From the NCBI GenBank assembly GCA_963832655.1, contig CAWHUW010000009.1:89675-153674 (forward strand): a stretch of 64,000 nt of DNA, written 5' to 3'. The notes under the pieces are model-generated. The model had not been told where the DNA came from. It saw nothing but the letters and a program-made list of their open reading frames with translations, and searched no databases. A program made the position numbers and the translations under genes. Source of the DNA: an uncultured Thermoleophilia bacterium. Its GTDB lineage: Bacteria > Actinomycetota > Thermoleophilia > UBA2241. Below are positions 10,437 through 55,297 of this stretch, piece after piece; positions within the stretch are counted from its first letter, which is position 1; each line of letters opens with the position of its first letter.

Positions 10437-10483
10437 GCCCCGAGTCTACCGGCGATCCGGCCCCTTGTGCGCTGCCCGCGTCC

Positions 10484-22811: not shown

Positions 22812-22968
22812 CGCCGCACAGCCTCTCACTTCCGCATCCCGCGGCCGTTGTGGCCGCTGATACCATAGATGTCGTCCCCGAACGCAGACCATCCCTACTC
22901 AGACCCGCGACGTGGGCGCGACGCATCGGCGTCGCCGGCGCCGCGCGCGAAAGGAGGCCTCCCGCAGC

Positions 22969-25661: not shown

Positions 25662-25771
25662 ATGCATGAGCTACGCAGTGGACGCTAACGCGCCGCTCGC
25701 GAAGGGCGACAGCACGTCCGGCGGGCAACGGGGCCGCGAACACAAGATCGCGAGACAGGAGAACAGCGACC

Positions 25772-26929: not shown

Positions 26930-26949
26930 CGGACAGAGAGCAGTAAGGG

Positions 26950-28354: not shown

Positions 28355-28405
28355 CCAGAGGCACACCACACGGCCACGCCACACCAGCGACGAAGCGAGT
28401 CACAC

Positions 28406-29674: not shown

Positions 29675-29725
29675 GACCGGGTCTCTGGCGTGGTCCTCCG
29701 AGACACGGACGTGAGGAGTCGCAGC

Positions 29726-31033: not shown

Positions 31034-32689
31034 GCGCAGTGACCCCGTCCGGTCAGCGGTACGACGCGGTGGTGATCGGCGGCGGCCACAACGGTCTGGT
31101 GGCGGCGTTCTACCTCGCTCGCGGGGGGCTCCGTACGCTGGTCCTGGAGCGTCGCGAGATGGTCGGCGGCATGGCCGTCACCGAGGAGTTCGCCCCCGGC
31201 TTCCGCGCTTCCCCGGGGGCGTACGTGCTGGCCATGCTCGGCGAGCACATCTGGCGCGACATGCGGCTCGCCGAGCGCGGCCTGCACGTCGACGCCTGCG
31301 GCCCGAGTCTGAATGTCTACCCGAGCGGCGCCCACTTCTGGATGGAGGAGCACGCCGTCGACGCGGCGAGGGAGGTGGGCCGCTTCTCGAAGAAGGACGC
31401 CGCCGCCTACCCGCGGTTCGACGAGGGACTGACGCGGATCGCGCGCTGGTTCGGGCCGCTCTTCGGCCTCACGCCTCCCGACCTCAGCATGCGGACGCGC
31501 CGCCGACTGGGGCCGAATGGCCCGCCTCGGCGGCACGGCGCTCAAGAACCGCAAGCAGCTGCTCGACGCCTACCAGCTCATGATGGCGTCGAGCACGACC
31601 TACCTGGACGAGCGCTTCGAGTCGGACGAGGTCAAGGCGGGCCTCGCCTGGTTCTCGATCAACGACTCGGTCTCGGGGCCTTCGACCCCGGGCACCGCCT
31701 ACACGCTCCTGCACGAGTACGCCTCCTCGGAGGCCGGCGGCGGCGTGCGCAAGTGGGGCTTCGTGCGCGGCGGCATCGGCATCCTGGGCCGGCTCATGGC
31801 CGACGCCGTGCGCGAGGCAGGCGGCGAGGTGCGCACGAACGCCGCCGTGGAGCGCGTGCTCGTCTCGGGCGGGCAGGCGACCGGCGTGCTCCTGGCGGGC
31901 GGCGAGGAGATCCAGGCCCCGCTGGTGGTCTCCAACGCCGATCCCAAGACGACCATGCTCGGCCTCGTCGGCGAGGAGAACCTCGACGCCGGCTTCTGCA
32001 GCTCTCTCAAGACGTTCATCACCGACGGCACGAGCATCAAGGTGAACCTGGCGCTGGGCGCGCTGCCCAAGCTGGCCTTCCCGGCGCTCAACGACGGCGA
32101 CGGCGTGCAGCGCTACCACCGCAGCATCATCGAGCTGACCAGCTCGATCCGCCAGATGGACCTCAACCAGGCCGAGGCGCGCGCCGGCATCCCGGCCAAG
32201 GACTATCCCCATGTCGAGTGCTGCTTCCCCACGGTCTTCGACCCGTCGCTGGCGCCGGAGGGCAAGCACATCATGACCATCGACATGAACTCGCAGCCCT
32301 ACACCTTGCGCGACGGGTCGAACTGGGACGACATCATCGGCGACGTCGCCGACCGCTGCATCAAGCAGCTGTGCGACTGCTTCCCGGGGCTCGACGGCAT
32401 GATCGAGCATCGGCAGACGCTCTCGCCGCTCGACATGGAGCGCCTCTTCAACGCCACCGGCGGCCACGCCCTGCACGGAGACATGGGCGACCACCAGATG
32501 TTCTTCTTGCGCCCCGTGCGCGGCTGGGCCAGCTATCGGATGCCCGTCCGTAACCTGTACCTCTGCGGCGCCGGCACCCATCCGGGAGGCGGCATCTCGG
32601 GAGCCAACGGGACCAACTGCGCCAACGAAGTGCTCCACGACGCGAAGAAGATGAAGCTCGCGGCGAAGCCCGGGGGCGACGGGCGATGA
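31030..32689 (+). CDS. FAD-dependent oxidoreductase, phytoene dehydrogenase-related (COG1233) (frameshift near 31500)
   Basis: 'IGGGHNGLVAA.YLA', 'GGMAVTEE', 'GFVRGG', 'NLYLCGAGTHPGGG'. Confidence 0.85.
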
Positions 32690-35193: not shown

Positions 35194-36627
35194 TCAGCCC
35201 GTGCGCCGCCGCACACCGTCGTCGTAGCGCGCCAGCAGTCCCGGCTCGGCCGGCGGGTCGGCGGCCACCTCGGCGATCGCCTCAGCCACCTGCCGGCACG
35301 ACCAGCGGAAGAGGTCGGGCGGCATGTTGATCGCCGGCTGCAGGCGGTAGACCCACTTGCCCCACTGCGTGATGCCCAGGACGCCGCGCCGGACGAGGGT
35401 CTGATGGACGGCGGCGTGAAAGGCCGGTGCAGGCGTGATGGTGAGCTTGTCCGTGACGAACTCGATGCCGACCCAGGCTCCGACGACGCGCACGTCGCCC
35501 ACCTGCTCGTGGCGCGCGACGAGCGGGTCGAGCTCATCGTGGGCGACCTCGGCGAGCGAGCGCGCGTTCTCGAGCGCCCCCTCGGCGACGATCGCGTCGA
35601 TGCCGGCGAGCGCGCCGGCGCACGCCGCGGGGGTCCAGGCGAAGGTGCCGCCGGGCTGCACGTCGGAGTCCGCCATGACGGCTTCGGTGGCCAGCACGGC
35701 GGCGATCGGCTGGCACCCGGCGGCGATGCCCTTGCCCATCAACAGGATGTCCGGCGCAAGGTCCCAGAGCTCGGCCGCGAACATGGTGCCGCAGCGGCCG
35801 AGACAGGTCTGCACCTCGTCGAGGATGAGCATCCAGCCGAAGCGCCGGCAGAGGTCAGTGAGCCGCTGCCAGAACGCCGCCGACGGCGCCAGGATGCCGC
35901 CCTCGCCGACGACGGGCTCGATGAGCACCCCGGCGATCTGTTCCGGGTCCACCTGGTGCACGAGCAGGTGCTCCTCGATGAAGTCGGCGTAGAGCGTGTC
36001 GTCGTAGGGGCCGGGACCCTTGTGGAAGGGAGCCCTGAAGCGGTTCGGATAGGGCGCGAACACCATTCCCGAGACGTACTGGGCGGCGTTGCTGGTCACC
36101 TCGGAGAGGTCGGTGCTGGCGGCGGCCGTGAGGTAGGTCGACTCACCGTGGTACTGGCCGTGGAAGCCGAGGATCATGGGTCGCCCCGTCGCCTCGCGGG
36201 CGAGCTTCACTCCTGCCTCGACGGCCTCGGTGCCGCTGATGCTCGGACCGGCGCGGGTGATGCCCGGAGGCGAGATCTCGACCAGACGTCGCGCCAGCGC
36301 CAGCGCCGGTTCGTTCATCACGTAGTCGGAGATCTCCATGCCGTAGCGGTCCTGGGCCTCCGCCGCGGCGCGGCATGCCGCCGGGTGCGCGCCGAGAGGG
36401 GTCGACCCCCACGCCGAGACGTGGTCGACGAACGTGTTGCCGTCGACGTCCTCGATCAGCCAGTCGCTCTTGCGTGCCTCGACGAACGGCACGTCGACGT
36501 GGTCACGCATGGGGCCGCAGAGCACGGCGTCCGCCGTCGCGAAGAGGCGTGCGGATCGTGGACCCGGCAGCGAGGTGGAGACGCGCGGCAGGGTGAAAGC
36601 GCGACCGTGGCCAGTGCTGGCATCCAT
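35194..36627 (-). CDS. Class III PLP aminotransferase (GABA/ornithine/diamine type)
   Basis: 'SGTEAVEAG.KLAR', 'FHGQYHG', 'IEPVVGEGG', 'ILDEVQT', 'PDILLMGKGIA'. Confidence 0.9.
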   Translation of the reverse strand: MDASTGHGRAFTLPRVSTSLPGPRSARLFATADAVLCGPMRDHVDVPFVEARKSDWLIEDVDGNTFVDHVSAWGSTPLGAHPAACRAAAEAQDRYGMEISDYVMNEPALALARRLVEISPPGITRAGPSISGTEAVEAGVKLAREATGRPMILGFHGQYHGESTYLTAAASTDLSEVTSNAAQYVSGMVFAPYPNRFRAPFHKGPGPYDDTLYADFIEEHLLVHQVDPEQIAGVLIEPVVGEGGILAPSAAFWQRLTDLCRRFGWMLILDEVQTCLGRCGTMFAAELWDLAPDILLMGKGIAAGCQPIAAVLATEAVMADSDVQPGGTFAWTPAACAGALAGIDAIVAEGALENARSLAEVAHDELDPLVARHEQVGDVRVVGAWVGIEFVTDKLTITPAPAFHAAVHQTLVRRGVLGITQWGKWVYRLQPAINMPPDLFRWSCRQVAEAIAEVAADPPAEPGLLARYDDGVRRRTG

Positions 36628-36829: not shown

Positions 36830-37498
36830 ATGCGCCCGCTGCAGACACGCAAACTGCTTGCCGAAGACGTCGCCGATCGCATCCGCGATGAGATCCTCTC
36901 GGGCGGGTTCTCGCAAGGCGAGCGCCTTGTCGAGGCCAGCATCGCCGAGCAGCTCGGCGTGAGCCGGGGCCCGGTACGCGAGGCATTCAAGCTGCTGCGC
37001 GCCGAAGGCCTCGTCAAGGAGGAGCCGCATCGCGGCACGTTCGTCGTGCGTCTCACGAGCAAAGATGCACGCGAGATCTACGATCTGCGTGCCGCACTCG
37101 AGGCGCGTGCCGCCAAGGAGGTCACGGAGCAGGCTCGCAGTGCCGACTTGCGCACCATGCGGCGTCTCCTGGAGCGCCTGCTTCAGGCCGCCGAGAACGG
37201 CGACGTGGCCGTCGTCTCGCAAGCCGACCTCGCCTTTCACGAGGGTGTGTGTCATCTCACCGGCAACGGTCGCCTGCATGAGGTCTTCATGCGTCACGTC
37301 CCGGTGCTGAGGAACCTGATGAAGCTCGACGAGTACATCTACCGCACGCTCGACGCCGTCGCCGTCGAGCACGAGCCGCTCATGGCTGCGCTCGAGAGCG
37401 GCGACCCCGCTCTGGCGGCGGCGCGCTTCGAGGCCCACGTCGAGCGCGCCAGAGACCAGGTCGCCACCTACATCGACGCCCTGCCAGACCATCCCTAG
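36830..37498 (+). CDS. GntR family (FadR/FCD) transcriptional regulator
   Basis: 'GERLVE..IAEQLGVSRGPVREA' wHTH; FCD 'EIYDLRAALE', 'DLAFH', 'EHE.L..AL'. Confidence 0.93.
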   Translation: MRPLQTRKLLAEDVADRIRDEILSGGFSQGERLVEASIAEQLGVSRGPVREAFKLLRAEGLVKEEPHRGTFVVRLTSKDAREIYDLRAALEARAAKEVTEQARSADLRTMRRLLERLLQAAENGDVAVVSQADLAFHEGVCHLTGNGRLHEVFMRHVPVLRNLMKLDEYIYRTLDAVAVEHEPLMAALESGDPALAAARFEAHVERARDQVATYIDALPDHP

Positions 37499-37516: not shown

Positions 37517-38627
37517 ATGTGGCTCCTGCGACGGCAGCTTCTGATCCTCGGCGTCGGCGGCGCTCGTCTGCCCGCTGGCGCTTCTGACAGGCTGCGGCGA
37601 GGCGTCGCCGGCGGACGCGACGAGTCCCACCGCCACCACGGCGGCAGGTGACGAGCTCGTTCTCTTCGCGCGACCGCGGCTGATCGCCGCCGCGGGCTTC
37701 GACCGGCCCCAGCAGGGGCCGCTTCTCGGCGCCGTGCGGGCGCTGCCCTACGACTCCGGCGAGGACATCCTCGTCGATCTCGGCGCGGGCCGCAGGGCCG
37801 ACGTCGTCGAGGTCTGCAGCAACGAGAGCGCCGAGCGTCTGGCACGGCAAGGCCTGCTGCAGCCACTCGACACGAGCCGCATCCCGCAATGGGACCGGCT
37901 CTACCCGGTCCTCAAGGACCTGCCCGGCGTGGTCGTCGACGGCGAGGTCTACATGGTGCCGGTCACCGCGGCCGTGACCGGCATCCTCTACGACCCGGCC
38001 GTCGACGCCTCGCCGCCCGACTCCTTCCGCGACCTGTTCAGTCGCCGCCACAAGGGACACCTGGGCTTCGCCGACGATCCTGCTCTGGCGTTCCAGATCG
38101 CCGCCCTCAACCTCGGCCTGCCCGACCCGGCCGGCCTCGACCCCGCGCAGGCGCTCGAGGCCGAGATCTACCTGAAGCACTTCAAGAAGAACTACCTCTC
38201 CTTCTGGTACGACCTCGACAACCTGGCGAGCGCCTTCAAGGGCGGGCGCGTGACGATCGCCGTCGGCGACCGGCGCGACGCGCTCGAGCTCCAGAGACGC
38301 GACGCGCCGGTCGCCTACGCGCTCGCCGCGGAGGGTCAGCCCATCGCCACCTGCGGCCTCGCGATCACGACGCAGGCGCGCGACCTCGACGCCGCCTACG
38401 CGCTCATCGACTACGCGCTGCGACCGGACACGCAGGCCGCCGTCGCGTCCGCCACCGGCGATCTCGTGTCAAACAGGGACGCCGCGAGGCTGGTCGATCC
38501 GGCCGAGCGCGCCCGTCTCGGCCTCGCCGACCTCGCGCGGCTCGACCGGCCCGTGGCGCGCCCGTCGTCCCTCGAGCATCTCGACTGGATCCAGGCCTGG
38601 TACGAGGTCAAGAAGGGGCGCGGCTGA
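37517..38627 (+). CDS. PotD/PotF-like ABC substrate-binding lipoprotein, divergent (frameshift near 37555)
   Basis: Lipobox LTGC, 'GLLQPLDTSRIP', 'DLDAAYALIDY'. Confidence 0.75.
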
Positions 38628-38773
38628 TGTCAGTGACGGAGCCGCCGTGAGCGGCTCGCGACGGGGCAGGCGGACGGCGCGCGTCTTGTGCACCTCCCGT
38701 CCGCGACCCCGGTCGTCGGCCGCTCTGTCGTCGACCCGGCGCCGGCGCCGAGCCTGACTCACGGCGATTGCTC

Positions 38774-38802
38774 TTGCGAGTGTCGACTGTCGACAGTACG
38801 AT
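38774..38802 (+). promoter_or_regulatory. Promoter with heptad operator in the spacer
   Basis: TTGCGA-N17-TACGAT; GTCGACT-GTCGACA-GTACGAT. Confidence 0.8.
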
Positions 38803-38856
38803 GCGGAGGAAGGAGCGGGCAGGGCGCCTGCTCGTCACGCGCGACTGGGGGAAGCC

Positions 38857-39978
38857 ATGGGTGGCCACAGGAACCGACGGAACGCAGCAGTCGTCGTCCT
38901 TGTACTTGTCTTGCCGCTGCTCGCGATCATCGCGGCCTGCGGGTCGGAGGAGGACGCCGCGCCGTCGCCCTCGGCGACCAGCGGCCCGGTCGCCGGCGAC
39001 CTCAAGCTGTTCGCCTACGAGGACGGCTTCGTGCCCGGGTACATCAAGGGCTTCAAGGAGCAGTACCCGGACGTGAACCTGATGGCCAGCGCGTACGACA
39101 GCGGCGACGCCGCCATCGCCAAGCTACGCGCCGGCTTTGAGGCCGACGTCATCAACCTCTGTGTCGAGGAAAACGCCGAGATGGCGGTGAAGCTCAAGCT
39201 CGTGCAGCCGCTCGACATCTCGCGCATCAAGGACTGGGACCGGATCTTCCCCGGGTTCCTCAAGCTGCCCGGGGTCACGATGCCGGACGGCGAGCACTAC
39301 ATGGTCCCGATCGACGCTGGGCCGACCGGCCTGCTCTACGACACGACGAAGGTCACGCCCGCCCCGACGTCCTTCAAAGATCTCTTCGATCCGAAGTGGA
39401 AGGGCAAGGTCGCCATGATCGACTACCCGGTGACGGCCATCCAGATCGGCGCCCTCGCACTCGGCTACACCGACCCGCTGCATCTTACCGACGAGCAGCT
39501 CGAGAACGTCAAGGACCTCTTCATCGAGGCCAAGAAGAACGGCCAGTTCCGCACCTTCTACCAGACCGATTCGGATCAGGTCACGCTCTTCAAGGGCCAC
39601 GAGGTGTGGCTCATGCCGGGGGGGCGCGGGACAGCGCTCGACATCCAGCGTGAGGATGAGCCGGTGGAGTTCCAGATGGCCGAGGAGGGGCAGATCCTCT
39701 GGACCTGCGGTTACGGCATCAGCTCCAAGACGAAGAACCTCGACGCCGCCTACGCGTTGCTGAACTACTACCTGTCGCCCGAGGCCGAGGCGTACGAGGC
39801 AACGCACTGGAACTACATGGTCACCAACATGGACACCCTCGACGTCGTGGATCCGCAGGTGCGCGAGGACGCGGGGCTCGACTTCGCCAACGACCTGGGG
39901 AACGCGATCCCCGCCGCGCCGCCCACGGAGGGGTACGACAAGTGGATCCGTGCCTGGCAGGAGGTCAAGCGCTATTAG
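38857..39978 (+). CDS. PotD/PotF-like ABC substrate-binding lipoprotein
   Basis: Lipobox IAAC, 'LVQPLDISRI', 'SFKDLFDPKWKGKV', 'NLDAAYALLNY'. Confidence 0.88.
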   Translation: MGGHRNRRNAAVVVLVLVLPLLAIIAACGSEEDAAPSPSATSGPVAGDLKLFAYEDGFVPGYIKGFKEQYPDVNLMASAYDSGDAAIAKLRAGFEADVINLCVEENAEMAVKLKLVQPLDISRIKDWDRIFPGFLKLPGVTMPDGEHYMVPIDAGPTGLLYDTTKVTPAPTSFKDLFDPKWKGKVAMIDYPVTAIQIGALALGYTDPLHLTDEQLENVKDLFIEAKKNGQFRTFYQTDSDQVTLFKGHEVWLMPGGRGTALDIQREDEPVEFQMAEEGQILWTCGYGISSKTKNLDAAYALLNYYLSPEAEAYEATHWNYMVTNMDTLDVVDPQVREDAGLDFANDLGNAIPAAPPTEGYDKWIRAWQEVKRY

Positions 39979-41032
39979 CGGCGCCGTCAGAACCATCGAC
40001 CTGCGCAGCGACACCAAGACGCGCCCCAGTGACGAGATGCGGCGCGTCATGGCCGCCGCTCCGGTGGGCGACGACGAGTCGGGCGAAGACCCGAGCGTCA
40101 ATCGCCTGCAGGAGTACGCCGCCGAGCTCTTCGGCAAGGAGGCGGCGCTCTTCTTCCCGACCGGGACGATGAGCAACCAGGTGGCGCTGCGCGTGCTCGC
40201 CCAGGCCGGCGACGAGGTCTTCATCCACGCCCGCGCCCACATCGTGCAGTGGGAGATGGGCGCGGCCGCCGCACTCTCGGGGCTGCAGCTGCGCGGCTTC
40301 GAGTCGGCCGACGGCACGCTCGACCCACAGGAGATGGAGCAGTTCGTGCGCACCGACGAGGAGGGCGACGACTCCGTCACGCGGGTCGTCGCCCTCGAGA
40401 ACAGTCACAACGCCGCCGGCGGTCTCGTCTATCCGCACGAGCAGGCGCTGGCCGTGCGCGCGTTCTGCGACCGCTACGGCATAGCCCTGCACCTCGACGG
40501 CGCCCGCATCTTCAACGCTCACGTCGCCAGCGGGCGCTCGCTGGCTGAACTGGCGGCGCCGTTCGATACGCTCAACGCCTGTCTCTCGAAGGGGCTGGGG
40601 GCGCCGGTCGGGTCGCTGATGCTGGGCAGCGCCGCGATCATCCGCCGGGCGTTCCGCTATCGCCTGCAGTTCGGTGGCGCGATGCGCCAGGTCGGCATCG
40701 TCGCGGCCGGCGGCCTGTATGCGCTCGAGCACAACATCGCGCGCCTGGCGGACGACCACCGCCGGGCGCGCGACCTGGCCGAGCGCCTGGCCGCCGTGCC
40801 CGGTCTCGCCGTCGACGTCGGCCGGGTGCACACCAACATGGTCATCGCCGACCCGCGGCCGGCCGGCGTGACCGCCGATGCGGTGGCGGAGGCGGCGGCG
40901 CCGGCCGGCCTGCTGGTCGACCCGAACCCCTACGGATTGCGCTTCGTCACGCACCTCGACGTCGACGACGCCGACATCGAGGAGGCGGCGGCGATCACGG
41001 CGGCGACGATGGCGCGCCTGGCGGTCGCTTGA
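39974..41032 (+). CDS. ltaE: Low-specificity L-threonine aldolase family (start uncertain)
   Basis: 'IDLRSDT.T.P', 'PTGTMSNQ', 'LHLDGARIFNA', 'CLSKGLGAPVGS', 'GGAMRQ.G'. Confidence 0.9.
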   Translation: MSGAVRTIDLRSDTKTRPSDEMRRVMAAAPVGDDESGEDPSVNRLQEYAAELFGKEAALFFPTGTMSNQVALRVLAQAGDEVFIHARAHIVQWEMGAAAALSGLQLRGFESADGTLDPQEMEQFVRTDEEGDDSVTRVVALENSHNAAGGLVYPHEQALAVRAFCDRYGIALHLDGARIFNAHVASGRSLAELAAPFDTLNACLSKGLGAPVGSLMLGSAAIIRRAFRYRLQFGGAMRQVGIVAAGGLYALEHNIARLADDHRRARDLAERLAAVPGLAVDVGRVHTNMVIADPRPAGVTADAVAEAAAPAGLLVDPNPYGLRFVTHLDVDDADIEEAAAITAATMARLAVA

Positions 41033-41072
41033 CCCGAGGCTGACGCCGCTCGTAGACTGTCGACAGTAAACC
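41029..41072 (+). promoter_or_regulatory. grd cluster promoter with heptad operator
   Basis: TTGACC-N18-TAGACT; GTAGACT-GTCGACA-GTAAACC, containing the perfect palindrome ACTGTCGACAGT at 41056-41067. Confidence 0.75.
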
Positions 41073-41094: not shown

Positions 41095-42375
41095 GTGCCC
41101 GCTGCGCCTGTACCATCGCTGGAGCTCGCCACATTCGCCGTGCGCGACATCGTCGCGGGCACCGAGGCGTCGTGGCGCGACGGCGTGCTGACCGTCGACG
41201 CTGCCGGGCTTCAAGAGGCGATCGCGGGCGAGCCGGGACTGCTCGGCGTGACGGTGGACCTCGTGCGCCCGGGCGAGCCGGCACGGGTGCTCAACGTCCT
41301 CGACGCCGTCGAGCCGGCGGTCAAGGCGGATGAGCCCGGTACGTCCTTCCCCGGGGCGCTCGGCACCCTGGCCGTCGCCGGCGCCGGTCGCACCCACCGT
41401 CTCGACGGGGCGGCCGTCCTCGCGACCGCCGACCTGCACGGCACCTATGACGTGACCGCCCTCGACGTGTACCCCGACGGCGACTCGTTCGTGGACATGG
41501 CGGGCCCGGGAGCGGACCTCACGCATTGGTCCGCGACCCACAACGTGGTGGTGAGCTTCGCCTGCGACCCTGGGGCGCCGCCGGCCGAGGCCGACGCCTC
41601 GATCAGGCGGGCGACGCTGCGCGTCGCCCGCGATCTTGCGGCGGCCACTCTCGCGGCGCCGCCCGACCACGTGGAACTGCTCGACCTGCCGGCCGTATCC
41701 GGCGACCTGCCGCGGGTCTGCGTCATCCTGCAGGTCGCCTCCGAGGGACCCCTCGTCGACACCTACCTGTACGGCCGGCCGTTGCACGGCCTCGTGCCGA
41801 CGCTCCTGGACCCGCGCGAGGTGCTGGACGGCGCGCTCACCGCCGGGCAGTACGACTGGGCGGGCGTGCGCGACCCCACCTACTTCTTCCAGCGCAGCAG
41901 CCTGCTGCGCGAGCTCCTGCGGCGCCACGGGGACGACCTCTGCTTCTGCGGAGTGATCCTCACGCTCGGCTATCTGCCGTCCGCGTTCGACAAGGAGCGC
42001 TCCGCGATGATCGCCGCCAAGCTCGCCCGTCAGATCGGCGCCGACGCGGCCGTCCTCACGACCTTCCAGACGGGCAATTCGCACACCGACACGGTGCTCA
42101 CCTGTCGCGCCTGCGAGCGGCTTGGCATCCGCACCGTCCTGCTGCTCGCCGAGACCAACGGTGGCCTGACCGACCACGTGCCGGAGGCCGACTGCATCGT
42201 GAGCGTCGGCAACGAGGAGGAACTCGTCCCCGAGTGGCGCCCGACGCGCGTGTTCGGCGGCGAGCGCACCTGGACGGGCCGGCCGGCCGACGACGCCGGT
42301 CCCGTGCCGGCGGTCACCTACCTCGGGTCACTCTGCCAGATGGGCGACATGAGGCTGCGGGCGGTGTCGTGGTGA
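41095..42375 (+). CDS. Glycine/sarcosine/betaine reductase component B non-seleno subunit (GrdE/GrdG/GrdI-like)
   Basis: 'DLVRPGE..R...V.D.VEP.VK', 'DMAGPGA', 'DTYLYG', 'VPTLLDP.EVLDGA', 'DKERSA', 'GIRTV'; 426 aa; directly upstream of grdB. Confidence 0.88.
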   Translation: MPAAPVPSLELATFAVRDIVAGTEASWRDGVLTVDAAGLQEAIAGEPGLLGVTVDLVRPGEPARVLNVLDAVEPAVKADEPGTSFPGALGTLAVAGAGRTHRLDGAAVLATADLHGTYDVTALDVYPDGDSFVDMAGPGADLTHWSATHNVVVSFACDPGAPPAEADASIRRATLRVARDLAAATLAAPPDHVELLDLPAVSGDLPRVCVILQVASEGPLVDTYLYGRPLHGLVPTLLDPREVLDGALTAGQYDWAGVRDPTYFFQRSSLLRELLRRHGDDLCFCGVILTLGYLPSAFDKERSAMIAAKLARQIGADAAVLTTFQTGNSHTDTVLTCRACERLGIRTVLLLAETNGGLTDHVPEADCIVSVGNEEELVPEWRPTRVFGGERTWTGRPADDAGPVPAVTYLGSLCQMGDMRLRAVSW

Positions 42376-43652
42376 AGGTCGTGCACTACCTCAACCAGTT
42401 CTTCGCCGGGTTGGGCGGCGAGGAGGCGGCCGGCGCGCCGCCGGTGCGCCTCGAGGGCGCCGTCGGTCCCGGCAAGGGCCTGGGCCTCGAGGTGGCCGTC
42501 ACGCTGGCCTGCGGCGACGACTACTTCGGGGAACGTGAGGAAGGCGCGCTCGAGCAGCTCCTGCGCTGGCTCGACGAGGAGCGGCCGGACGTGCTGGTCT
42601 GCGGGCCGTCGTTCGGCTCGGGGCGCTACGGCTACGCCTGCGGCGTGCTGGCGCGCGAAGCCGCGCGCCGCGGCGTCCCCGCCGTCTGCGGCATGCACCC
42701 CGAGAGCCCGGGGGTGCTCGCCGCCGAGGGCGCCGCGTACGTCGTGCCGACCGACGTCAAGGTGACGGGCATGCGCGACGCGCTGCCCAGGATGGCGGCC
42801 CTGGCCCGTCGGCTCGCCGCCGGCGAGGCTCTCGGGTCGCCCGAGCAGGAGGGCTATCTGCCGCGCGGTCTACGCCGTAACGAGATCGCCGACCACACCG
42901 GCGCGGAGCGCGCCGTCGAGCTGCTGCTCGCCAAGCTGGCGGGAGACGTGCGCACCGAGGTCACGGCGGCGTTCGACGACGTCCCGCCGCCGCCGCCGGT
43001 GGCGGACATGGCGGCGGCCACGGTCGCGCTCGTCACCGAATCCGGGCTGGTGCCCAAGGGCAACCCGGATCGCCTCGAGTCCAATCGGGCCCACGTCTGG
43101 CTGAGCTACCCGATCCAGGGACTGGCAGGCTTCGGGGCTGGCGACTGGGAGACGGTGCACGGCGGCTACGACACCGGCGTCGCCAACGCCGACCCGAACC
43201 GGCTGGTGCCGCTCGACGCGCTGCGTCGCGCGGCCGCCGACGGCCGTATCGGGGGTGTGCACGAGACGCTTTACACGACGACCGGCAACTCGACCCCGGT
43301 GGCGACGGCGGCCAAGTTCGGGCAGGAGATCGCGCAGCGCCTGCGCGAAGCGGGCATCCAGGCGGTGATCCTCACCGGCACCTGAGGGACGGGCACGCGT
43401 TGCGGGGCAACGCTGAGCAAGGAGATCGAGCGTGCGGGCATACCGACGGCGTTCATCACGGCGCTGCCGACCATCGCCACCATGGTCGGCGCGAACCGCA
43501 CGGTGCGAGGCATTGCGGTGACCAATCCGGCGGGCGATCCGTCGCTGGGCGCCGCCGACGAACTGGCGCTGCGGCGCCGCATCGTGGAGCGCGCGCTCGA
43601 GATGCTGGCCACCGCGGTGGAGCCCAGGACGGTGTGGGAGGTCGAAGGGTGA
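42372..43652 (+). CDS. grdB: Reductase component B selenoprotein subunit (GrdB-like), Sec at TGA 43383-43385
   Basis: 'VVHYLNQFFAGLGGEE', 'GPSFGSGRYG', 'VHGGYD...NADPNRLVPLD'. The frame continues past TGA as T-U-GTGTRCGATLSKEIERAGIP...VGANR to TGA 43650-43652 (426 aa). Confidence 0.93.
43397..43413 (+). promoter_or_regulatory. Bacterial SECIS element of grdB
   Basis: GCGTTGC-GGG-GCAACGC perfect 7-bp stem starting 11 nt after the UGA, with a G-rich apical loop. Confidence 0.8.
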
Positions 43653-43716: not shown

Positions 43717-45033
43717 GTGACGCGGCGCGCCGGCATCCTCGCCGCGTCGTTCGTGCTGGAGCACGTGCCGGACCTGGTGCGCTACGGCTCCAAGCCGGCG
43801 CGCGAGGCGCGCAAGTTCGAGACCGTGCGCGACAAGCTGCGCACGTTCGAACAGGCGCGCGGCTACGCGCCGAACCAGGCCTTCATCGGCAACCTGCGTC
43901 CGGAGGAGCTGTGGGACAGGGCGCGACCGTGGTGGGGAGAGCCGGACGCGGCCGCGCCGGCCGCCGGGCCATACGGCGACATCATCGACCAGCGCTCCTT
44001 CTACGAGCTGATGAAGGAGGTCGACCTCTTCGACCTCGTCCGCCTGGGCGAGGAGCCGCGACCGGAGAACGGCGACCTCGCGCTCTACGACGGCGAGGAT
44101 GTGGTCGGCGCCTTCGCGCGCGCCCACGACGAAGACGAGGCCCTGAGCGCGCCCGCCTTGCTCGACAACCTCGCCTGCAAGGCGGGCGGCGTGCACGCGC
44201 TGCGCTTCATGCTTGCGCGCTCGGGCGTCGACCCGGAGTCGATCCGCTACGCGATCGGCGCCGGCGAAGAGGCGGTCGGCGACCGCTACAACCGCGGCGG
44301 CGGTGCGCTCGCCAAGGCGATCGCCGAGAGCTGCGGCCTGGTGAACGCCAACGGCAGCGACGTGAAGGCCTTCTGCACGAGCCCGGTGCACGCGCTGATC
44401 ATGGCCGGCGCGCTCGTCGAGTCGGGGACCTTCGAGCGCGTCGTGGTCGTCGCCGGCGGCTCGCTCGCCAAGCTCGGCATGAAGTTCAAGGGCACGCTCG
44501 ACCGCGGCGTGCCGGTGCTCGAGGACGTGCTCGCCGGCATGGCGATCCTCGTCGGCCAGGCCGACGGCGACACGCCGCGCCTGCGGCTCGACGCCGTCGG
44601 CCAGCACCGCGTCGGCAACGACTCCTCGCAGCAGTCGCTGCTCAAGGAGGTCGTGGCCGTCCCGCTCGACAAGCTGGGGCGCAAGGTGGCCGACATCGAC
44701 GTCTACGCGACCGAGCTGCACAACCCGGAGATCACCGAGCCGGCCGGAGGCTACGACGTTCCAGAGCGCAACTACAAGCTGCTCGCCGCGCTCGCCGTGA
44801 TGCGCGGCGAGCTGGGCCGCGACGAGATGGACGCCTTCTACCGCAGTCGCGGCCTGCCCGGCTTCTCGCCGACCCAGGGCCACATCGCCTCGGCGGTGCC
44901 CTGGGTCCCGCACGCCCTGGACCGCTTCGCGCGCGGCGAGCTCCGCTCGACGATGCTCATGGCGAAGGGCAGCCTGTTCCTTGGCCGCATGACCCAGATG
45001 TGGGACGCGGTCTCCGTCATCCTGGAGGTGTGA
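43717..45033 (+). CDS. grdC: Reductase component C, GrdC-like (FabH-fold) subunit
   Basis: 'LEHVPDLVRYGS', 'EEAVGDRYNRGGG.LAKAIAE', 'AGGSLAKLGM', 'ELHNPEIT', 'GFSPTQGHI', 'KGSLFLGRMT'. Confidence 0.92.
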   Translation: MTRRAGILAASFVLEHVPDLVRYGSKPAREARKFETVRDKLRTFEQARGYAPNQAFIGNLRPEELWDRARPWWGEPDAAAPAAGPYGDIIDQRSFYELMKEVDLFDLVRLGEEPRPENGDLALYDGEDVVGAFARAHDEDEALSAPALLDNLACKAGGVHALRFMLARSGVDPESIRYAIGAGEEAVGDRYNRGGGALAKAIAESCGLVNANGSDVKAFCTSPVHALIMAGALVESGTFERVVVVAGGSLAKLGMKFKGTLDRGVPVLEDVLAGMAILVGQADGDTPRLRLDAVGQHRVGNDSSQQSLLKEVVAVPLDKLGRKVADIDVYATELHNPEITEPAGGYDVPERNYKLLAALAVMRGELGRDEMDAFYRSRGLPGFSPTQGHIASAVPWVPHALDRFARGELRSTMLMAKGSLFLGRMTQMWDAVSVILEV

Positions 45034-45357
45034 ATGGCCGTCGAGGCGACCGTAGAGACCTTCCCCGCGCTGGTCGCGCGGGGCAACGTGCTGATCGACT
45101 TCTGGGGCCCTCGCTGCGTGCCCTGCCTGGCGCTGATGCCGGCGGTCGAGAAGCTCGAAGAGGAGTACGACGGAGGCTTCACGCTGGTCAAGGTGAACGC
45201 CGCCGAGAACCGGCAGATCGCGCGCGATCTCAAGGTCATCGCGATGCCGACGTTCGTGCTGTATCGCGACGGCGCCGAGGTGGAGCGCCTTGGCGGCAAC
45301 CCCTCGGCGGCCGACGTCGGCGCCGCCGTGGCGAGGCTCGTGGAGGGAGGTGAGTGA
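45034..45357 (+). CDS. trxA: Thioredoxin, glycine-reductase-associated type
   Basis: 'DFWGPRCVPCLALMP'. The CVPC active site is the type known from glycine reductase operons. Confidence 0.92.
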   Translation: MAVEATVETFPALVARGNVLIDFWGPRCVPCLALMPAVEKLEEEYDGGFTLVKVNAAENRQIARDLKVIAMPTFVLYRDGAEVERLGGNPSAADVGAAVARLVEGGE

Positions 45358-45815
45358 TGGATCTGAAGGGCAAGAAGGTCATCGCCCTCGGCGAGCGCGA
45401 CAGCGTCTCCGGCGAGGCGATCGCGGACTGCGTGCGCACGGCCGGAGCCGAAGTCGTCATGATCGAGACGGAGTGTTTCGTCTGAACGGCCGCAGGGGCC
45501 ATGGACCCGGAGAACCAGGGACGCATCAAGGCCACGGTCGAGCGCTACGGCGCTGACGACCTGGTGGTGGTGCTCGGAGCGGCCGATCTCGAAGGTCTCG
45601 AGATGGTCGCCGAGACGGTCACCGAGGGCGACCCGAGCTACGTCGGTCCATTGGCAGGGGTCCAGTTGGGACTCCCCGTGATGCACATCTTCGAGGACGA
45701 CCTGCGCGCGCAGGTCGACTCGGCGATCTACGACGACCAGATCGGCTTCGTCGAGCTGGCCGTCGACAGCGACGCCGTCAAGACGGCGATGAAGAAGTTC
45801 AGGGGCGAGGAGTAG
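45357..45815 (+). CDS. grdA: Reductase selenoprotein A, Sec at TGA 45483-45485
   Basis: ATG overlaps the trx stop. Reads MDLKGKKVIALGERD...TECFV-U-TAAGAMDPENQ...GDPSYVGPLAGVQLGLPV (152 aa), with the canonical CxxU motif. Confidence 0.95.
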
Positions 45816-45842
45816 GACACCCTCGACGTGAAAGGGGTCGCG

Positions 45843-46697
45843 ATGTCCGACCTGCTGGGCAGGTTCAGCGTTCTGACCGAGGACCTCGACCACCCCGAGG
45901 ACCTGGTCTGGGACCCGGCGAGCGGACGGCTCTACGCCGGCGGCGAAGCCGGTCAGATCTACGCCGTGGGGCTCGATGGCGAGGTCGAGCAGGTGGCCGA
46001 CAGCGGCGGCGGCATCCTCGGCCTCGCGGTCGACGCCGCCGGGACGGTCTACGCCTGCGACGAGGGGCGCGCCGAGGTGCTGCGCGTGGACCCGCGCTCC
46101 GGCGAGATCGAGGTCTACTCGGCGGGAAGTCCCGACCGCGCCATGATCGAGCCGAACTCCTGCGCCTTCGACGCCGCCGGCAACCTCTACGTCACCGACT
46201 CCTCCGACTGGGAGGAGCAGAACGGCGTGGTCTACCGCATCGCGCCCGGCGGCGAGACTGTCGTGTGGACGGACGCGCTGCGGCGCTACCCGAACGGCTG
46301 CTGCTTCAGCGCCGACGGGAGCTGGCTGTACGTCGTCGAGTCGAGCCTGCCGGGGATCTGGCGGGTGCCCGTCGGCGCCGACGGCGCGCCCGGGTCGCCG
46401 CAGCTCGTCCGCGAGCTGCCGGAGGCTCACGTGCCCGACGGCATCGCCTTCGACGATCACGGCATCCTCTACATCGCCTGCTACCGGCCGGATCGCGTGT
46501 ATCGGCTCGCGCCGGGCGGCGACCTCGAGGTGCTCGCCGACGACCCCCTCGGGCTCAAGCTGAACACGCCCACCAACGTGGCGTTCGTCGGCGCCGGCCT
46601 CGATCGTCTGGCGATCGCCAACGTCGGCGAATGGCACATACTCGTGGGTGACGTCGGCGCGCGCGGCGCGCCGCTCTTCTACCCGACGGTCGGCTAG
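45843..46697 (+). CDS. SMP-30/gluconolactonase family beta-propeller hydrolase
   Basis: 'LDHPE', 'EPN...FDAAGNLYVTDS', 'YPNG..FS.DG', 'VPDGIAFD'. Confidence 0.88.
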   Translation: MSDLLGRFSVLTEDLDHPEDLVWDPASGRLYAGGEAGQIYAVGLDGEVEQVADSGGGILGLAVDAAGTVYACDEGRAEVLRVDPRSGEIEVYSAGSPDRAMIEPNSCAFDAAGNLYVTDSSDWEEQNGVVYRIAPGGETVVWTDALRRYPNGCCFSADGSWLYVVESSLPGIWRVPVGADGAPGSPQLVRELPEAHVPDGIAFDDHGILYIACYRPDRVYRLAPGGDLEVLADDPLGLKLNTPTNVAFVGAGLDRLAIANVGEWHILVGDVGARGAPLFYPTVG

Positions 46698-46738: not shown

Positions 46739-47539
46739 TTGGGACGCTTCGAGGGCAGGAACGTCATCGTGACCGGCGCGTCGAGCGGCATCGGCTGGGC
46801 GATAGCGCACGCCTTCGTCGACGAAGGCGCGAGCGTGTTCGCCGTCGCGCGGCGCGGCGCGCTGCTCGAGGAGATGCGCGCCGCGTCGAGCGCGCCGGCG
46901 CGCGTGCACACGGCCGTCGCCGACGTCGGTGTGCCCGACCAGGCGCGCGGCATGGTGGCGGCGGCGATCGACGCCCTGGGCCGCGTGCACGTGCTGGTCA
47001 ACAACGCGGCCATCATGCCCTACGGCCCCGTGCTGGAGATGGAGGAGGCGACCTGGCGCGACACGCTGGCCGTGAATCTCGACGGGCCGTTCTTCGCCAG
47101 TCAGGCGGCGGCGCGACACATGGTCGCGCAGGGCGGCGGCGTCATCATCAACATCGCCTCCGCGAACGCCTTCAGGGTCGAGTCGCCGGCGGCCAACTAC
47201 AACACGTCCAAGGCGGCGCTCGTGATGATGACGCGCTGTTTCGCTCACGAGCTCGGCCACCTCGGGGTGCGCGCCTGCTGCGTCGCTCCGGGGCAGACGG
47301 TGACGCCGGAGGCCGAGGCCGAGCTCACGCGAGACGAGTACCACCGCGAGTTCGTCGAGTACTGCAGCCGGGTACCGCTGCGCCGTCCCGCGCAGCCGCG
47401 GGAGCAGGCCGCCGTCGTCCTCTTTCTGGCCTCGGACGACGCGTCGTACGTCAACGGCGAGACCGTCGTCGTCGACGGCGGCGAACTCACCGGCGAATGG
47501 TACGACCCGGACCTCAACCCGCCGGTGCCGGAGCCCTAG
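46739..47539 (+). CDS. Short-chain dehydrogenase/reductase
   Basis: TGASSGIG, NNAA, YNTSK, 'FLASDDASYVNG'. Confidence 0.9.
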   Translation: MGRFEGRNVIVTGASSGIGWAIAHAFVDEGASVFAVARRGALLEEMRAASSAPARVHTAVADVGVPDQARGMVAAAIDALGRVHVLVNNAAIMPYGPVLEMEEATWRDTLAVNLDGPFFASQAAARHMVAQGGGVIINIASANAFRVESPAANYNTSKAALVMMTRCFAHELGHLGVRACCVAPGQTVTPEAEAELTRDEYHREFVEYCSRVPLRRPAQPREQAAVVLFLASDDASYVNGETVVVDGGELTGEWYDPDLNPPVPEP

Positions 47540-47552
47540 CGGGCGCGGGACG

Positions 47553-48374
47553 ATGAGCCTCCCGATCGCCGACGAGTGGTTCTCCGCGACGCCCGCCGGC
47601 GCCGGCGTGACGCTGCTCACCGAGCCGTGGGTCGACGAGTTCCTGCGCGCCAACCTGTGGCTGGTCGAGGGCCGGGAGCGCGACCTGCTGATCGACGCGG
47701 GCAACGGCATCGCCCCGCTGCTGCCGGCGGTGCGCGCCCTGCAGGGGCACCCGCGGAAGCCCCTCGTGGCGGTCGTCACGCACACGCACTCCGACCACAT
47801 GGGCGGCCTGCACGAGTTCCCCGAGCGCCTGGTGCACCGGCTCGAGGCCGAGGCGCTTGCGGACGCCGCGGACGCCGCGTGCCTGGTCACCGCGCAGTTC
47901 CCCGCAAGCCTCCTGGCCGAGATCGCCGCCGACGGCCTCGAGCTGCCCGAGGTGCTGCTCACGGCGTCGCCGAGGGAGGGGTTCGACCCCGCGGCATTCG
48001 CCGTCGTCGGGACGACGGCGACCGGCACGCTCGACGAGGGCGACACGATCGACCTCGGCGACCGCGTCTTCGCCGTCCTGCACCTGCCGGGGCACTCGCC
48101 CGGGAGCATCGGCCTTTGGGAGGAGAAGACCGGCGTCCTTTTCTCGGGCGACGCCGTGTACCGCGACGGGCCGCTGCTCGACCAGATGCCGGGCAGTGAC
48201 GTCGGCGCGTACCTGCGGACCATGGAACGACTGCGCGATCTGCCCGTGTCGGCCGTGCACGGCGGCCACGACCCGAGCTTCGCGCGACCGCAGCTGGTGG
48301 CGATCGCCGAGGAGTACGTCGCCCGCCGTGGAGATCAGGATCGAGTCAGCGACACGACTGGGGGATCGCCATGA
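47553..48374 (+). CDS. MBL-fold metallo-hydrolase
   Basis: THTHSDHMGG (HxHxDH), 'PGHSPGS', 'FSGD', 'VHGGH'. Confidence 0.9.
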   Translation: MSLPIADEWFSATPAGAGVTLLTEPWVDEFLRANLWLVEGRERDLLIDAGNGIAPLLPAVRALQGHPRKPLVAVVTHTHSDHMGGLHEFPERLVHRLEAEALADAADAACLVTAQFPASLLAEIAADGLELPEVLLTASPREGFDPAAFAVVGTTATGTLDEGDTIDLGDRVFAVLHLPGHSPGSIGLWEEKTGVLFSGDAVYRDGPLLDQMPGSDVGAYLRTMERLRDLPVSAVHGGHDPSFARPQLVAIAEEYVARRGDQDRVSDTTGGSP

Positions 48375-51062: not shown

Positions 51063-51092
51063 GTTGACTGTCGACACTTGACTATGTAGCAT
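51063..51092 (+). promoter_or_regulatory. pot operon promoter with heptad operator
   Basis: TTGACT-N17-TAGCAT; GTTGACT-GTCGACA-CTTGACT. Confidence 0.8.
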
Positions 51093-51156
51093 GCGAGGGC
51101 TGCTCCGTTCGTCGCCGCACTCGTGCCGCGATGTCGTCCCTCCAAGGAGGCCTAAC

Positions 51157-52266
51157 ATGAGCACGAAGAGCCGCGGGCTCGCGATCCTCACCCTGGTCGT
51201 CCTGGCCCTGGCCGTCCCGGTACTGGCGGCGTGCGGGGACGAGGAGGCCAGCCCCTCGCCGAGCGCCACGGCGCCCGTCGAGGTCTCCGGTGAGCTCACC
51301 CTGTTCGCTTACGAGGACGGCTTCGTTCCGAAGTACATGAAGCCGTTCAAGGAGGCCTACCCGGACGTCGATCTCAGGGCGAGCGCCTACGACAGCGGCG
51401 ACGCCGCCATCGCCAAGATGCGCGCGGGGTTCGAAGCTGACGTCATCAACCTCTGCGTGGAAGAGAACGCCGAGCAGGCCGTGCGACTCGGTCTCGTGCA
51501 GCCGCTCGACGTGAGCCGTCTGACGCACTGGGACGAGATGTTCCCGGTGTTTCTGACCCTGCCCGCCGTGACGGCCGAGGACGGCCAGCACTACCTGGCG
51601 CCGGTCGACGCCGGGGTGACCGGGGTCCTCTACGACACGACCAAGGTCACCGAGAAGCCGACGTCGTTCATGGACCTCTTCGACCCCAAGTACGAGGGTC
51701 AGGTCGCGATGATCGACTACCCGGTGACCGCGATCCAGGTGGGCGCCCTGGCGCTCGGCTACGAAGACCCGATCAACCTCACGCCCGAGCAGCTCGACGC
51801 GGTGAAGAACCTCTACATCGAGGCCAAGCAGCGCGGCCAGTTCCGCACCTTCTTCTCCAACGACTCCGAGATCGTCGCTCTGTTCCACACCGGCGAGGTC
51901 ACGATCGCCGTGGGCTACCCGGGGAACGCGCTGGACTCGCAGCGCGAGGGCGACCCGGTGGAGTTCTCGATCTGCAAGGAAGGGCAGATCGTCTGGACCT
52001 GCGGCTACGGTATCAGCAAGACGTGCAAGAACATCGACGCCGCCTACGCACTGATCGACTACTACCTGTCGCCCGAGGCGCAGGCGTTCGAGGTCAATGA
52101 GTGGAGCTACTTCCCCACCCTCGAGACCACGCTCGACCTGCTCGACCCGAAGGTGCGCGTGCAGGCCGAGATCGTGCGCGAGTGGGGGAACATCGTACCG
52201 GCGGCCCCGCCGGCCGAAGGCTACGACGAGTGGATCCGCGCCTGGCAAGAGGTGAAGAGGAGCTAG
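51157..52266 (+). CDS. potD: PotD-like ABC substrate-binding lipoprotein
   Basis: RBS AAGGAGG; lipobox LAAC; closely similar to 38857-39978; first gene of the ABC operon. Confidence 0.88.
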   Translation: MSTKSRGLAILTLVVLALAVPVLAACGDEEASPSPSATAPVEVSGELTLFAYEDGFVPKYMKPFKEAYPDVDLRASAYDSGDAAIAKMRAGFEADVINLCVEENAEQAVRLGLVQPLDVSRLTHWDEMFPVFLTLPAVTAEDGQHYLAPVDAGVTGVLYDTTKVTEKPTSFMDLFDPKYEGQVAMIDYPVTAIQVGALALGYEDPINLTPEQLDAVKNLYIEAKQRGQFRTFFSNDSEIVALFHTGEVTIAVGYPGNALDSQREGDPVEFSICKEGQIVWTCGYGISKTCKNIDAAYALIDYYLSPEAQAFEVNEWSYFPTLETTLDLLDPKVRVQAEIVREWGNIVPAAPPAEGYDEWIRAWQEVKRS

Positions 52267-53183
52267 TGGCGCAGGCCGTACTGCAGAACCCTGGGGCGGC
52301 ACCGGGCGAGGGTGGCATCCCCGTCGCGCAGGTGCCGCTCGGCCTTCGCGTGCGGCGTTCTCTCGACGCCGTCGGGGGGCGCACCTACGCGATCGTGTTC
52401 ATCATGCTGCTCTACGGCCCGCTCGTCCTGCTGGCGGCATTCTCGTTCAACGACTCCATCGTCTTCTCGTTGCCGTGGAGCGGCTTCACGACGAAGTGGT
52501 ATTCGGAGGCGTTGTCCGATTCGAACCTCCGCCAGGCGCTGCGGAACTCGGTGATCGTGTCCAGCATCGTCGCTCCGGCGAGCGTCATCCTCGGGACCCT
52601 CGCCGCGTACCCGATCACCCGTCTGCGCTTCAAGCTGCGCGGCGGGGCCGCCATGCTTCTCGCCGCGCCGCTCGTGGTGCCTTGGCTGGTGATCGGCATC
52701 AGCGCGCTCATCTACTTCAACAAGGCGGGGGTCGCCCTGTCGTGGCACACGGTCGTGCTCATGCACATCGTGGTCACGTTCCCGCTCGTCACGGTGCTGA
52801 TGTCGGCGAGCATGGCGCGTTTCGACCGCACCCAGGAGGAGTCGGCCATCGACCTGGGGGCGTCCCAGCTGCAGGTCGTGCGCCACGTGCTCCTGCCTCA
52901 CATCGCGCCGTCGCTGATGGCCTCGTTCATCCTCGCCTTCTCGTGGTCGTTCAACAACTTCGAGATCACCTACTTCGTCGGCGGCTTCGACCAGCTCTTC
53001 CCGGTCTGGGTGTACTCCACCCTGAGACATGCCTCCAACCTGCCGATCGTCAACGCCGTCTCCACACTCGTCTCGATCGTCGAGGTGCTGCTCGTCTACA
53101 CCTTCTGGGTGCTCATAACCCGGGGCGCCGGCGCCCGCACCTCGAAGGAGAAGACCGACACCCTCATGGAGTCGATCCGCTGA
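52266..53183 (+). CDS. potC: Polyamine-type ABC permease (PotC-like)
   Basis: 'LYGPL..L..FSFN', 'GFTTKWY', EAA loop 'EESAIDLGAS'. Confidence 0.88.
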   Translation: MAQAVLQNPGAAPGEGGIPVAQVPLGLRVRRSLDAVGGRTYAIVFIMLLYGPLVLLAAFSFNDSIVFSLPWSGFTTKWYSEALSDSNLRQALRNSVIVSSIVAPASVILGTLAAYPITRLRFKLRGGAAMLLAAPLVVPWLVIGISALIYFNKAGVALSWHTVVLMHIVVTFPLVTVLMSASMARFDRTQEESAIDLGASQLQVVRHVLLPHIAPSLMASFILAFSWSFNNFEITYFVGGFDQLFPVWVYSTLRHASNLPIVNAVSTLVSIVEVLLVYTFWVLITRGAGARTSKEKTDTLMESIR

Positions 53184-55239: not shown

Positions 55240-55297
55240 CGGCGCCGGCGGCCAGCCGGCGCATGTCGTCACAGGCACATCATCCACCAGAAGGAGC

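Follow-up and report, generated by a model that had tools for sequence, protein, structure and literature searches.

The stretch of DNA analysed here (the window, 64 kb) comes from an uncultured Thermoleophilia-like soil actinobacterium, has a G+C content of about 70% (0.655-0.742 per 2 kb) and carries a row of five genes related to those of glycine reductase. The subject of this report is the first gene of the row, here called E', a GrdE-like gene whose product lacks the cysteine from which the pyruvoyl group of GrdE is derived, together with its partner B', a GrdB-like selenoprotein. The members of the row and the features discussed within them are the following (aa, amino acids; nt, nucleotides; SECIS, selenocysteine insertion sequence):

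41095..42375, plus strand: E', GrdE-like, Cys-less substrate-side subunit, 426 aa (protein P0001); PF09338
41827-41883, plus strand: E' loop DGALTAGQYDWAGVRDPTY, residues 245-263; alignment and column counts
42061-42084, plus strand: E' second motif TFQTGNSH, residues 323-330, replacing EEG[FY]GNPD of GrdE/GrdG/GrdI
42372..43652, plus strand: B', GrdB-like selenoprotein, 426 aa, translated with TGA as U; TIGR01918
43397..43413, plus strand: SECIS-like hairpin GCGUUGC-GGG-GCAACGC, 14 nt after the UGA of B'
43717..45033, plus strand: GrdC (component C beta), 438 aa; NF040746, 527.2 bits, cut-off 450
45034..45357, plus strand: thioredoxin TrxA; PF00085, E 1e-19
45357..45815, plus strand: GrdA selenoprotein A, 152 aa; NF040748, 200.9 bits, cut-off 130

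The E' gene starts with a GTG codon that has GGAGG 7 nt upstream, and its frame has the composition of a coding sequence (GC1/GC2/GC3, the G+C at the three codon positions, of 0.75/0.52/0.92), the antisense open reading frame (ORF) at 41445-41762 being its shadow, with a pattern of 0.51/0.77/0.91. The protein belongs to the PF09338 glycine-reductase family, matching the Pfam profile Gly_reductase at E 3.8e-85 and 286.4 bits (cut-off 22.2) over nearly its full length (residues 9-388, profile positions 3-382 of 426). A search of the PDB sequences with E' gave no relative, and the sole match, at E 0.084, was an isochorismatase.

A scan of genomes, one for each GTDB species, yielded 263 relatives of E', and the locus counts given below refer to the best 80 of these 263. 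All of the best 80 are from uncultured Actinomycetota (Thermoleophilia, Gaiellales, Actinomycetes and one Acidimicrobiia) except two, from Desulfofundulus and Syntrophobacter. The five genes are all present in 62/80 loci, and in each of those 62 they lie within 6 kb in the conserved order E-B-C-Trx-A. The nearest public relative of E' in the scan, at locus L013, is 98% identical; its E' frame (10001-11284) is broken, and a reading in one frame yields just a 190-aa piece.

The grdC gene also starts with GTG, with GGGAGG upstream, and its product, present in 68/80 loci, is 41% identical to GrdC of Acetoanaerobium noterae and has a deletion of about 36 residues relative to the canonical protein. 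For the thioredoxin, the nearest curated model is that of clostridial TrxA (82.1 bits, cut-off 140). GrdA has an in-frame TGA at 45483-45485 within the motif ECFV-U-TAAG, which recurs, TGA included, in 64/80 loci. GrdD, the acetyl-phosphate-forming subunit, was detected neither in the window nor within 10 kb of the module in the 80 loci (tblastn, E<=1e-3), nor in a phmmer search (E<=1) of 13,684 six-frame segments, 90 of which were matched by the GrdC control; a grdD gene may lie elsewhere in the genome. Protein C, described as GrdC plus GrdD and as acetyl-phosphate-forming (PMC9908766), is represented at these loci by GrdC. There are no tRNA genes in the window, no genes for selenocysteine (Sec) insertion were seen among its scanned ORFs, and an Rfam search of 36000-58000 gave three sub-threshold chance matches only.

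The cleavage-site loop and the place of E' in its family

In GrdE of C. difficile the pyruvoyl group derives from Cys242 and was captured as peptide 242-266 (PMC9908766). Tyr253 of E' aligns with this cleavage cysteine and Gly257 with the second cysteine, 246, so that both residues of the autoprocessing pair are replaced. The loop and the second motif read DGAILSGNCVSACDKNPTY and EEGFGNPDTD in GrdE of A. noterae, DGAITSGNCVAPCDKVTTF and EEGYGNPDTD in GrdG of P. acidaminophilum, DGAVISGSFMPCSSKWSTY and EEGYGNPDAD in GrdI of A. noterae (assigned from its locus), and DGALTAGQYDWAGVRDPTY and TFQTGNSHTD in E'. The loop falls within the segment 41815-41895 that the original prediction had singled out, and the second motif lies in the same ORF outside that segment. 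What that prediction had said of the sequences holds: the pyruvoyl-forming cysteine is missing, the GrdE motifs it quoted are accurate, and its background on the carbonyl derived from this cysteine agrees with the literature, in which GrdI is described as having no processing cysteines and forming no proprotein (PMC10838667).

The absence of the cysteine extends well beyond E' itself. At the Cys242 column, Cys occurs in 0/120 of the listed homologues, which are 53-96% identical to E' (Y 112, F 7, M 1), and in 0/80 of the locus-encoded relatives (Y 77, S 1, W 1, gap 1). The missing residue is therefore no feature of chance or of the assembly, and the absence of the pyruvoyl precursor across a large clade is solid. 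Counted over 201 clade sequences, Tyr253 is conserved in 190 and Trp255 in 187, and the stretch from Gly327 to Asp332 (G-N-S-H-T-D) in 188-200, with Asn328 and Ser329 in 198 each and His330 in 188. The Asn328-Ser329 pair resembles the Asn-Cys cleavage dipeptide of GrdE.

The diversity of family PF09338 goes far beyond its three or four characterised members, and the family contains many deep clades. A search of 1.84 billion representative proteins with E' returned 994 family members at E<=1e-3. Among the 128 full-length representatives nearest to the query (within P0124-P0271), 124 are without Cys at the processing site, where Tyr is the commonest residue (67), followed by Phe (16), and Cys occurs in 4 (P0183, P0218, P0237 and P0263). 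Since Tyr is found at this column family-wide, it marks Cys-less forms generally, and the proposal that the Tyr/Trp replacement is a purpose-built cation-pi pocket is, from these counts, not supported as stated. The features specific to the clade of E' are D254, W/Y255, F324 and the S329-H330 pair; in 115 other representatives the F324 position has E in 52, and the S329 position has A in 41, P in 21 and S in 17.

Reference proteins were found by tblastn among annotated records of a plasmid collection. GrdG and GrdF were taken from the annotated grdG-grdF pair of the P. acidaminophilum plasmid NZ_CP007453.1, and GrdE and GrdI from the 2.6-Mb A. noterae record NZ_CP154629.1, which has the gene row trxB-trxA-grdE-grdA-grdB-grdC-grdD and, about 60 kb from it, a grdI-like gene beside GrdH and a betaine transporter of the BCCT family. 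This record (2.63 Mb; L082, L083) is filed as a plasmid and looks chromosome-sized. The reference controls score above their NCBIfam cut-offs (given after the slash, in bits), namely GrdB 945.7/602.2, GrdF 854/800, GrdH 811.9/775, GrdG 881.2/780, GrdC 816.6/450, GrdD 581.4/350 and BCCT 687.3/650.

E' is 31% identical to GrdE, 30% to GrdG and 27% to GrdI, and it remains far below the curated cut-offs for GrdG (NF040793, 190.6/780), FarE (NF053623, 140.4/675) and PrdA (TIGR04480, 24.2/700). None of the 115 full-length proteins among the nearest 150 representatives reached the GrdG or FarE cut-offs (NCBIfam, E<=1e-110), which places the characterised enzymes outside these 150. In two quick IQ-TREE runs of 75 rows (LG+G4 and LG+C20+F+G4 PMSF), the query lies inside an 18-row clade with SH-aLRT support of 100, and GrdE, GrdG and GrdI fall, with P0218, P0237, P0263 and P0241, into a different clade supported at 97/98. 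Tight grouping with GrdI, named beforehand as an outcome that would overturn the prediction, was thus not seen, and the lack of processing cysteines that E' shares with GrdI is common to most of the family.

The partner selenoprotein and comparison with known systems

The start of B' overlaps the stop of E' (GTGA), and homology leads one to expect that the two proteins bind each other. An in-frame TGA at 43383-43385 encodes U338 in the motif ILTGT-U-GTGTRCGAT, and the protein matches the selenoprotein-B subfamily TIGR01918 over its full length with 430 bits. It is below the cut-offs of three characterised types: GrdF (429.2/800), GrdB (TIGR01917, 404.1/602.2) and GrdH (NF040795, 367.7/775). 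E' is therefore no GrdI orthologue, and it is paired with neither the GrdB that accompanies GrdE nor the GrdH that accompanies GrdI. When B' was scored with the published GrdB motif of Nobu et al. (PMC9751293), 3/6 of the GrdB elements were present (YxNx6GGE, CGD and TxGNxTxV) and 0/2 of those specific to GrdF, the control A. noterae GrdB having 6/6.

Of the 76 loci that yielded a reading of the motif [TS][GS]T-U-GTGTRCG, L010 alone has Cys and the other 75 have TGA. GrdB, GrdF and GrdH have a Cys three positions after Sec (U-G-T-C-T-R-C); in B' this residue is Gly in 76/76 loci (window 43374-43406), and the Ser before T-U is Gly in 73/76 (44 TGT-U, 28 SGT-U and 1 TGT-C; 3 keep TST-U). FarB is also reported to lack the CxxC (PMC10838667). 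In L010 (12208-12270) the Cys stands in place of Sec (TGT-C-GTGTRCG), and GrdA of the same locus retains its in-frame TGA.

B' and GrdA have one in-frame UGA each, at the Sec position of their families, and that of B' is accompanied by a conserved SECIS-like hairpin. In an alignment of 17 loci with 43-96% protein identity, 6/7 of its pairs are invariant, synonymous sites included, with 1 compensatory change, and the flanking codons wobble freely. This is the signature expected of an actinobacterial SECIS, for which the hairpin is a candidate. It became clear solely in the 17-sequence alignment; single-sequence folds after the UGAs were no better than those of shuffled sequences (z scores: B' 0.25, GrdA -1.74, control at the stop of B' 0.47).

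E' and B' are set apart from GrdE/B, GrdG/F, GrdI/H and FarE, with which they have different features in common. The betaine reductase GrdI/GrdH is of the same Pfam family, has no Cys at the Cys242 position and no proprotein, and has a Sec-containing B subunit that works with GrdA, thioredoxin and GrdC. GrdI nevertheless keeps EEGYGNPD where E' has TFQTGNSHTD, and belongs to a different well-supported clade; GrdH reads S-T-U-G-T-C-T-R-C where B' reads G-T-U-G-T-G-T-R-C, and the grdIH locus has a betaine BCCT transporter, whereas the E' locus has a Pot-type one and no GrdD nearby. The fluoroacetate reductase FarE/FarB of Cloacibacillus porcorum (PMC10838667) likewise combines a Cys-less E subunit with a B subunit altered in the CxxC after Sec, and is a precedent for new substrate classes on the Grd scaffold without a Schiff base. 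The comparison with FarE is by profile only: on its model E' scores below GrdE, GrdG and GrdI (167-206 bits), and no radical-SAM or fluoride-related genes were seen at the E' locus. With GrdE/GrdB and GrdG/GrdF, the pair shares the fold family, the length (about 426-430 aa), the partners GrdA, GrdC and TrxA and, in the case of GrdB, the three motif elements, and differs in having neither processing cysteine, in its separate clade and in gene order, which is E-B-C-Trx-A without GrdD at the E' locus and trxB-trxA-E-A-B-C-D in A. noterae.

Genes around the row

The genes flanking the row that enter the argument are listed below (FAD, flavin adenine dinucleotide; PLP, pyridoxal phosphate; SDR, short-chain dehydrogenase/reductase; ABC, ATP-binding cassette; MBL, metallo-beta-lactamase fold).

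31050..32689, plus strand: FAD amine-oxidase/CrtI-like oxidoreductase, read in two frames; homologues in 32/80 loci
35194..36627, minus strand: class-III aminotransferase; PF00202, E 1.1e-72; homologues in 40/80 loci
36830..37498, plus strand: GntR/FCD regulator, head of the plus-strand gene row; Pfam FCD, GntR
37734-38627 and 38857-39978, plus strand: two PotD/PotF-like solute-binding proteins; SBP_bac_8/6/1
39950..41032, plus strand: GntG-family/low-specificity threonine-aldolase-like PLP aldolase (glycine-forming type); NF041359, 366.5/230
41029..41058, plus strand: promoter-like TTGACC-18-TAGACT between aldolase and E'; consensus scan, a lead only
45828-46697, plus strand: SMP-30/gluconolactonase-like protein; Pfam; SGL in 41/80 loci
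46739-47539, plus strand: SDR; Pfam; 39/80 loci
47553-48374, plus strand: MBL protein; Pfam; MBL in 15/80 loci
51091-52266, plus strand: Pot-type ABC importer, binding protein; 35/80 loci
52101-53183, plus strand: Pot-type ABC importer, permease; 27/80 loci
54106-55239, plus strand: Pot-type ABC importer, PotA-like ATPase; TIGR01187, 392.8/355.6; 25/80 loci

The aldolase also matches the L-threonine aldolase model, below its cut-off (288/312). It occurs near E' in 8/80 loci only, and as a general rule its role as the pathway-defining gene was rejected. The consensus scan that found the promoter-like site gave 2 sites where 0.5 were expected. Homologues of the GntR/FCD regulator form a cluster present in 30/80 loci, and those of the two solute-binding proteins (37734..39978) occur in 33-35/80, their PotD, PotF and PhnS2 matches being weak and far below the cut-offs. 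A fourth binding protein linked to the row, besides these two and that of the Pot-type importer, is at 48371. The FAD amine-oxidase/CrtI-like gene is split between two frames near 31480; a full-length homologue at L073 matches PF01593 at E 2e-20. One Thermoleophilia subgroup has other neighbours instead, namely an IclR regulator (17), a DAO-type oxidoreductase (7) and an aminobutyraldehyde dehydrogenase (7; 693.8/615). Neither a BCCT nor an OpuA-type betaine transporter was detected in the window. The aminophosphonate-flavoured matches (phnS2, PhnT2, phnR, TIGR03329 and PbfA) are weak and all below cut-off, and they were not counted in favour of a phosphonate substrate.

Further genes were seen at greater distances. 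The gene for an aldehyde:ferredoxin oxidoreductase (55187-57105) changes from one frame to another near 56480-56540, which reflects either an assembly indel or a pseudogene. The upstream row 25670-31033 contains an OCD-family protein above the cut-off of the "tyramine oxidase subunit B" subfamily (405.3/362), a glycerate-kinase-like MOFRL protein, an enolase (366.1/300) and a diaminopimelate (DAP)-decarboxylase-like PLP enzyme, the last near the module in 11/80 loci. A TelA toxic-anion-resistance protein with an adjoining PF10112 protein (2392-4505, minus strand), a rubrerythrin (22861-23511, plus strand) and a glutaredoxin (61999-62328, minus strand) are redox- or anaerobe-flavoured; TelA, rubrerythrin and glutaredoxin stand in a high-GC actinobacterial background with MMPL and TetR genes.

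Probable chemistry and its alternatives

E' is a real, conserved and uncharacterised variant that lies outside every characterised specificity class. The reading that we prefer, with modest confidence, is that E' is a non-processed, pyruvoyl-free subunit of the "protein B" of a selenium-dependent complex of the glycine-reductase type, encoded by five translationally coupled genes and acting by a carboxymethyl-X mechanism. E' would stay a single chain and offer no carbonyl for a Schiff base, and the enzyme would work like betaine and fluoroacetate reductases, for which there is precedent: GrdI and FarE are described as having neither of the two processing cysteines and as not being proproteins, and such Cys-less members act on substrates that carry a leaving group (PMC10838667). 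The selenolate of B' would attack the CH2 of a carboxymethyl-X substrate, X itself being a good leaving group; the carboxymethyl group would pass to the Sec of GrdA and on to GrdC, and thioredoxin would re-reduce GrdA. X may be an imported amine or its oxidation product rather than free glycine, to which the recurrence of the Pot-type importer and of the aminotransferase, FAD amine-oxidase-like, SDR and SMP-30-like genes points; the gene context as a whole argues for an imported amine, not for betaine, and for glycine only locally.

Several points weigh against this reading. A gene for an aldolase of a glycine-forming type lies 62 nt upstream of E' on the same strand, and of the glycine-type motif B' still has the element TxGNxTxV. 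The sets of neighbours differ between sub-clades, and Gaiellales-type loci carry the core alone, so that one substrate shared across the clade is not assured. The GrdI used as reference was identified by its neighbours (a GrdH above cut-off and a BCCT transporter) and is not the purified GrdI of E. acidaminophilum, and the trees are quick searches with SH-aLRT support only. In the literature, moreover, the assignment of the glycine-binding carbonyl to GrdE is not firm: glycine binding is assigned to a second, unlocated carbonyl on GrdB, and for the pyruvoyl of GrdE a role in maintenance only is suggested (PMC9908766). With the site of the carbonyl unsettled, the loss of Cys242 alone does not exclude glycine. 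The claim that the substrate is neither glycine nor sarcosine is consequently weaker than it was made to be, given the carbonyl on GrdB, the aldolase upstream and the TxGNxTxV of B'; the analogy with GrdI and FarE makes a substrate other than glycine plausible.

The alternative that survives best, although we consider it unlikely, is that the complex is a glycine reductase after all, in which B' would hold glycine by a carbonyl or some other group, or binding would involve no Schiff base at all; the glycine could come, for example, from the action of the aldolase on a beta-hydroxy amino acid, and the pyruvoyl of GrdE would be dispensable in this lineage. The GntG/threonine-aldolase-type gene directly upstream fits this proposal, and the aldehyde:ferredoxin oxidoreductase encoded 10 kb downstream could consume the aldehyde formed alongside glycine, but the aldolase is rare at the relatives' loci and has a promoter-like site between it and E'. 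B' keeps YxNx6GGE, CGD and TxGNxTxV with no GrdF-specific elements, is nearer to the GrdF and GrdB models than to that of GrdH, and corresponds to the subunit on which the second carbonyl has been proposed (PMC9908766); yet it fails the GrdB cut-off and half of the GrdB motif elements, and the Ser of S-T-U, the proposed precursor of the carbonyl in GrdB (PMC10838667), is the residue replaced by Gly in nearly all B' loci. Every sampled enzyme known to act on glycine or sarcosine, furthermore, keeps Cys242.

That the complex reduces betaine or another simple quaternary ammonium or sulfonium compound, having arisen separately from GrdHI and using Tyr253 and Trp255 as an aromatic cage, seems improbable. 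Such a specificity would agree with the conservation of both residues in the clade, with the Cys-less state that E' shares with GrdI, whose aligned loop also contains aromatics (SGSFMPCSSKWSTY), and with the finding that betaine reductase needs no carbonyl (PMC10838667). The relation of E' to GrdI is, however, at the level of the family only, among the GrdB, GrdF and GrdH models B' scores lowest on that of GrdH, Tyr, which occupies this column throughout the family, is not diagnostic, and the transporters at the E' locus are Pot-type, with no BCCT or OpuA type in the window, whereas at the reference grdIH locus a BCCT transporter scores above its cut-off.

A relocated cofactor, with self-cleavage at Asn328-Ser329 of TGNSHTD giving a C-terminal fragment of about 98 residues that bears a pyruvoyl made from the serine, is very improbable: both motifs changed together, Asn328, Ser329 and His330 are strongly conserved, canonical enzymes have Pro after the Asn (GNPD) and Ser is generally known as the usual pyruvoyl precursor in other enzyme families (PMC9908766), but the proposal is pure sequence analogy, and the position of Ser329 is taken by A, P or G in other Cys-less clades, so that it would be no general solution.

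The preferred reading of E' as a pyruvoyl-free subunit can be extended, tentatively and with a good deal of doubt, to a widespread carbonyl-free and GrdD-less branch of glycine reductases in soil Actinomycetota, in which Sec would cleave an unrecognised carboxymethyl-X compound, for instance an N-carboxymethyl or onium compound from the catabolism of an imported polyamine-like amine, and the acetyl group would be transferred from GrdC to a non-phosphate acceptor such as coenzyme A (CoA). In phylogenetic terms the suggestion of a new specificity class is reasonable, with the qualification that the clade is one of many uncharacterised Cys-less clades in the family. No description of it was found in the literature searched; supplements, such as the full Grd tree (Fig. 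S6) of PMC9751293, might show it.

The substrates characterised on the Grd/Prd scaffold amount to four classes plus fluoroacetate (PMC10838667). The clade of E' is populous, with 263 relatives, and has a complete and conserved operon, which makes it a tractable entry to unexplored chemistry and bears on the use of selenium in high-GC soil actinobacteria. Its substrate, once identified, would test whether the pyruvoyl of GrdE is needed for C-N cleavage, and would add to the turnover of carbon and nitrogen in soil a reductive sink that might yield ATP or acetyl-CoA. If the branch with a carboxymethyl-X substrate and a non-phosphate acceptor proves true, it would give this enzyme family a substrate class and an output that are both new, in organisms that are not regarded as Stickland fermenters.

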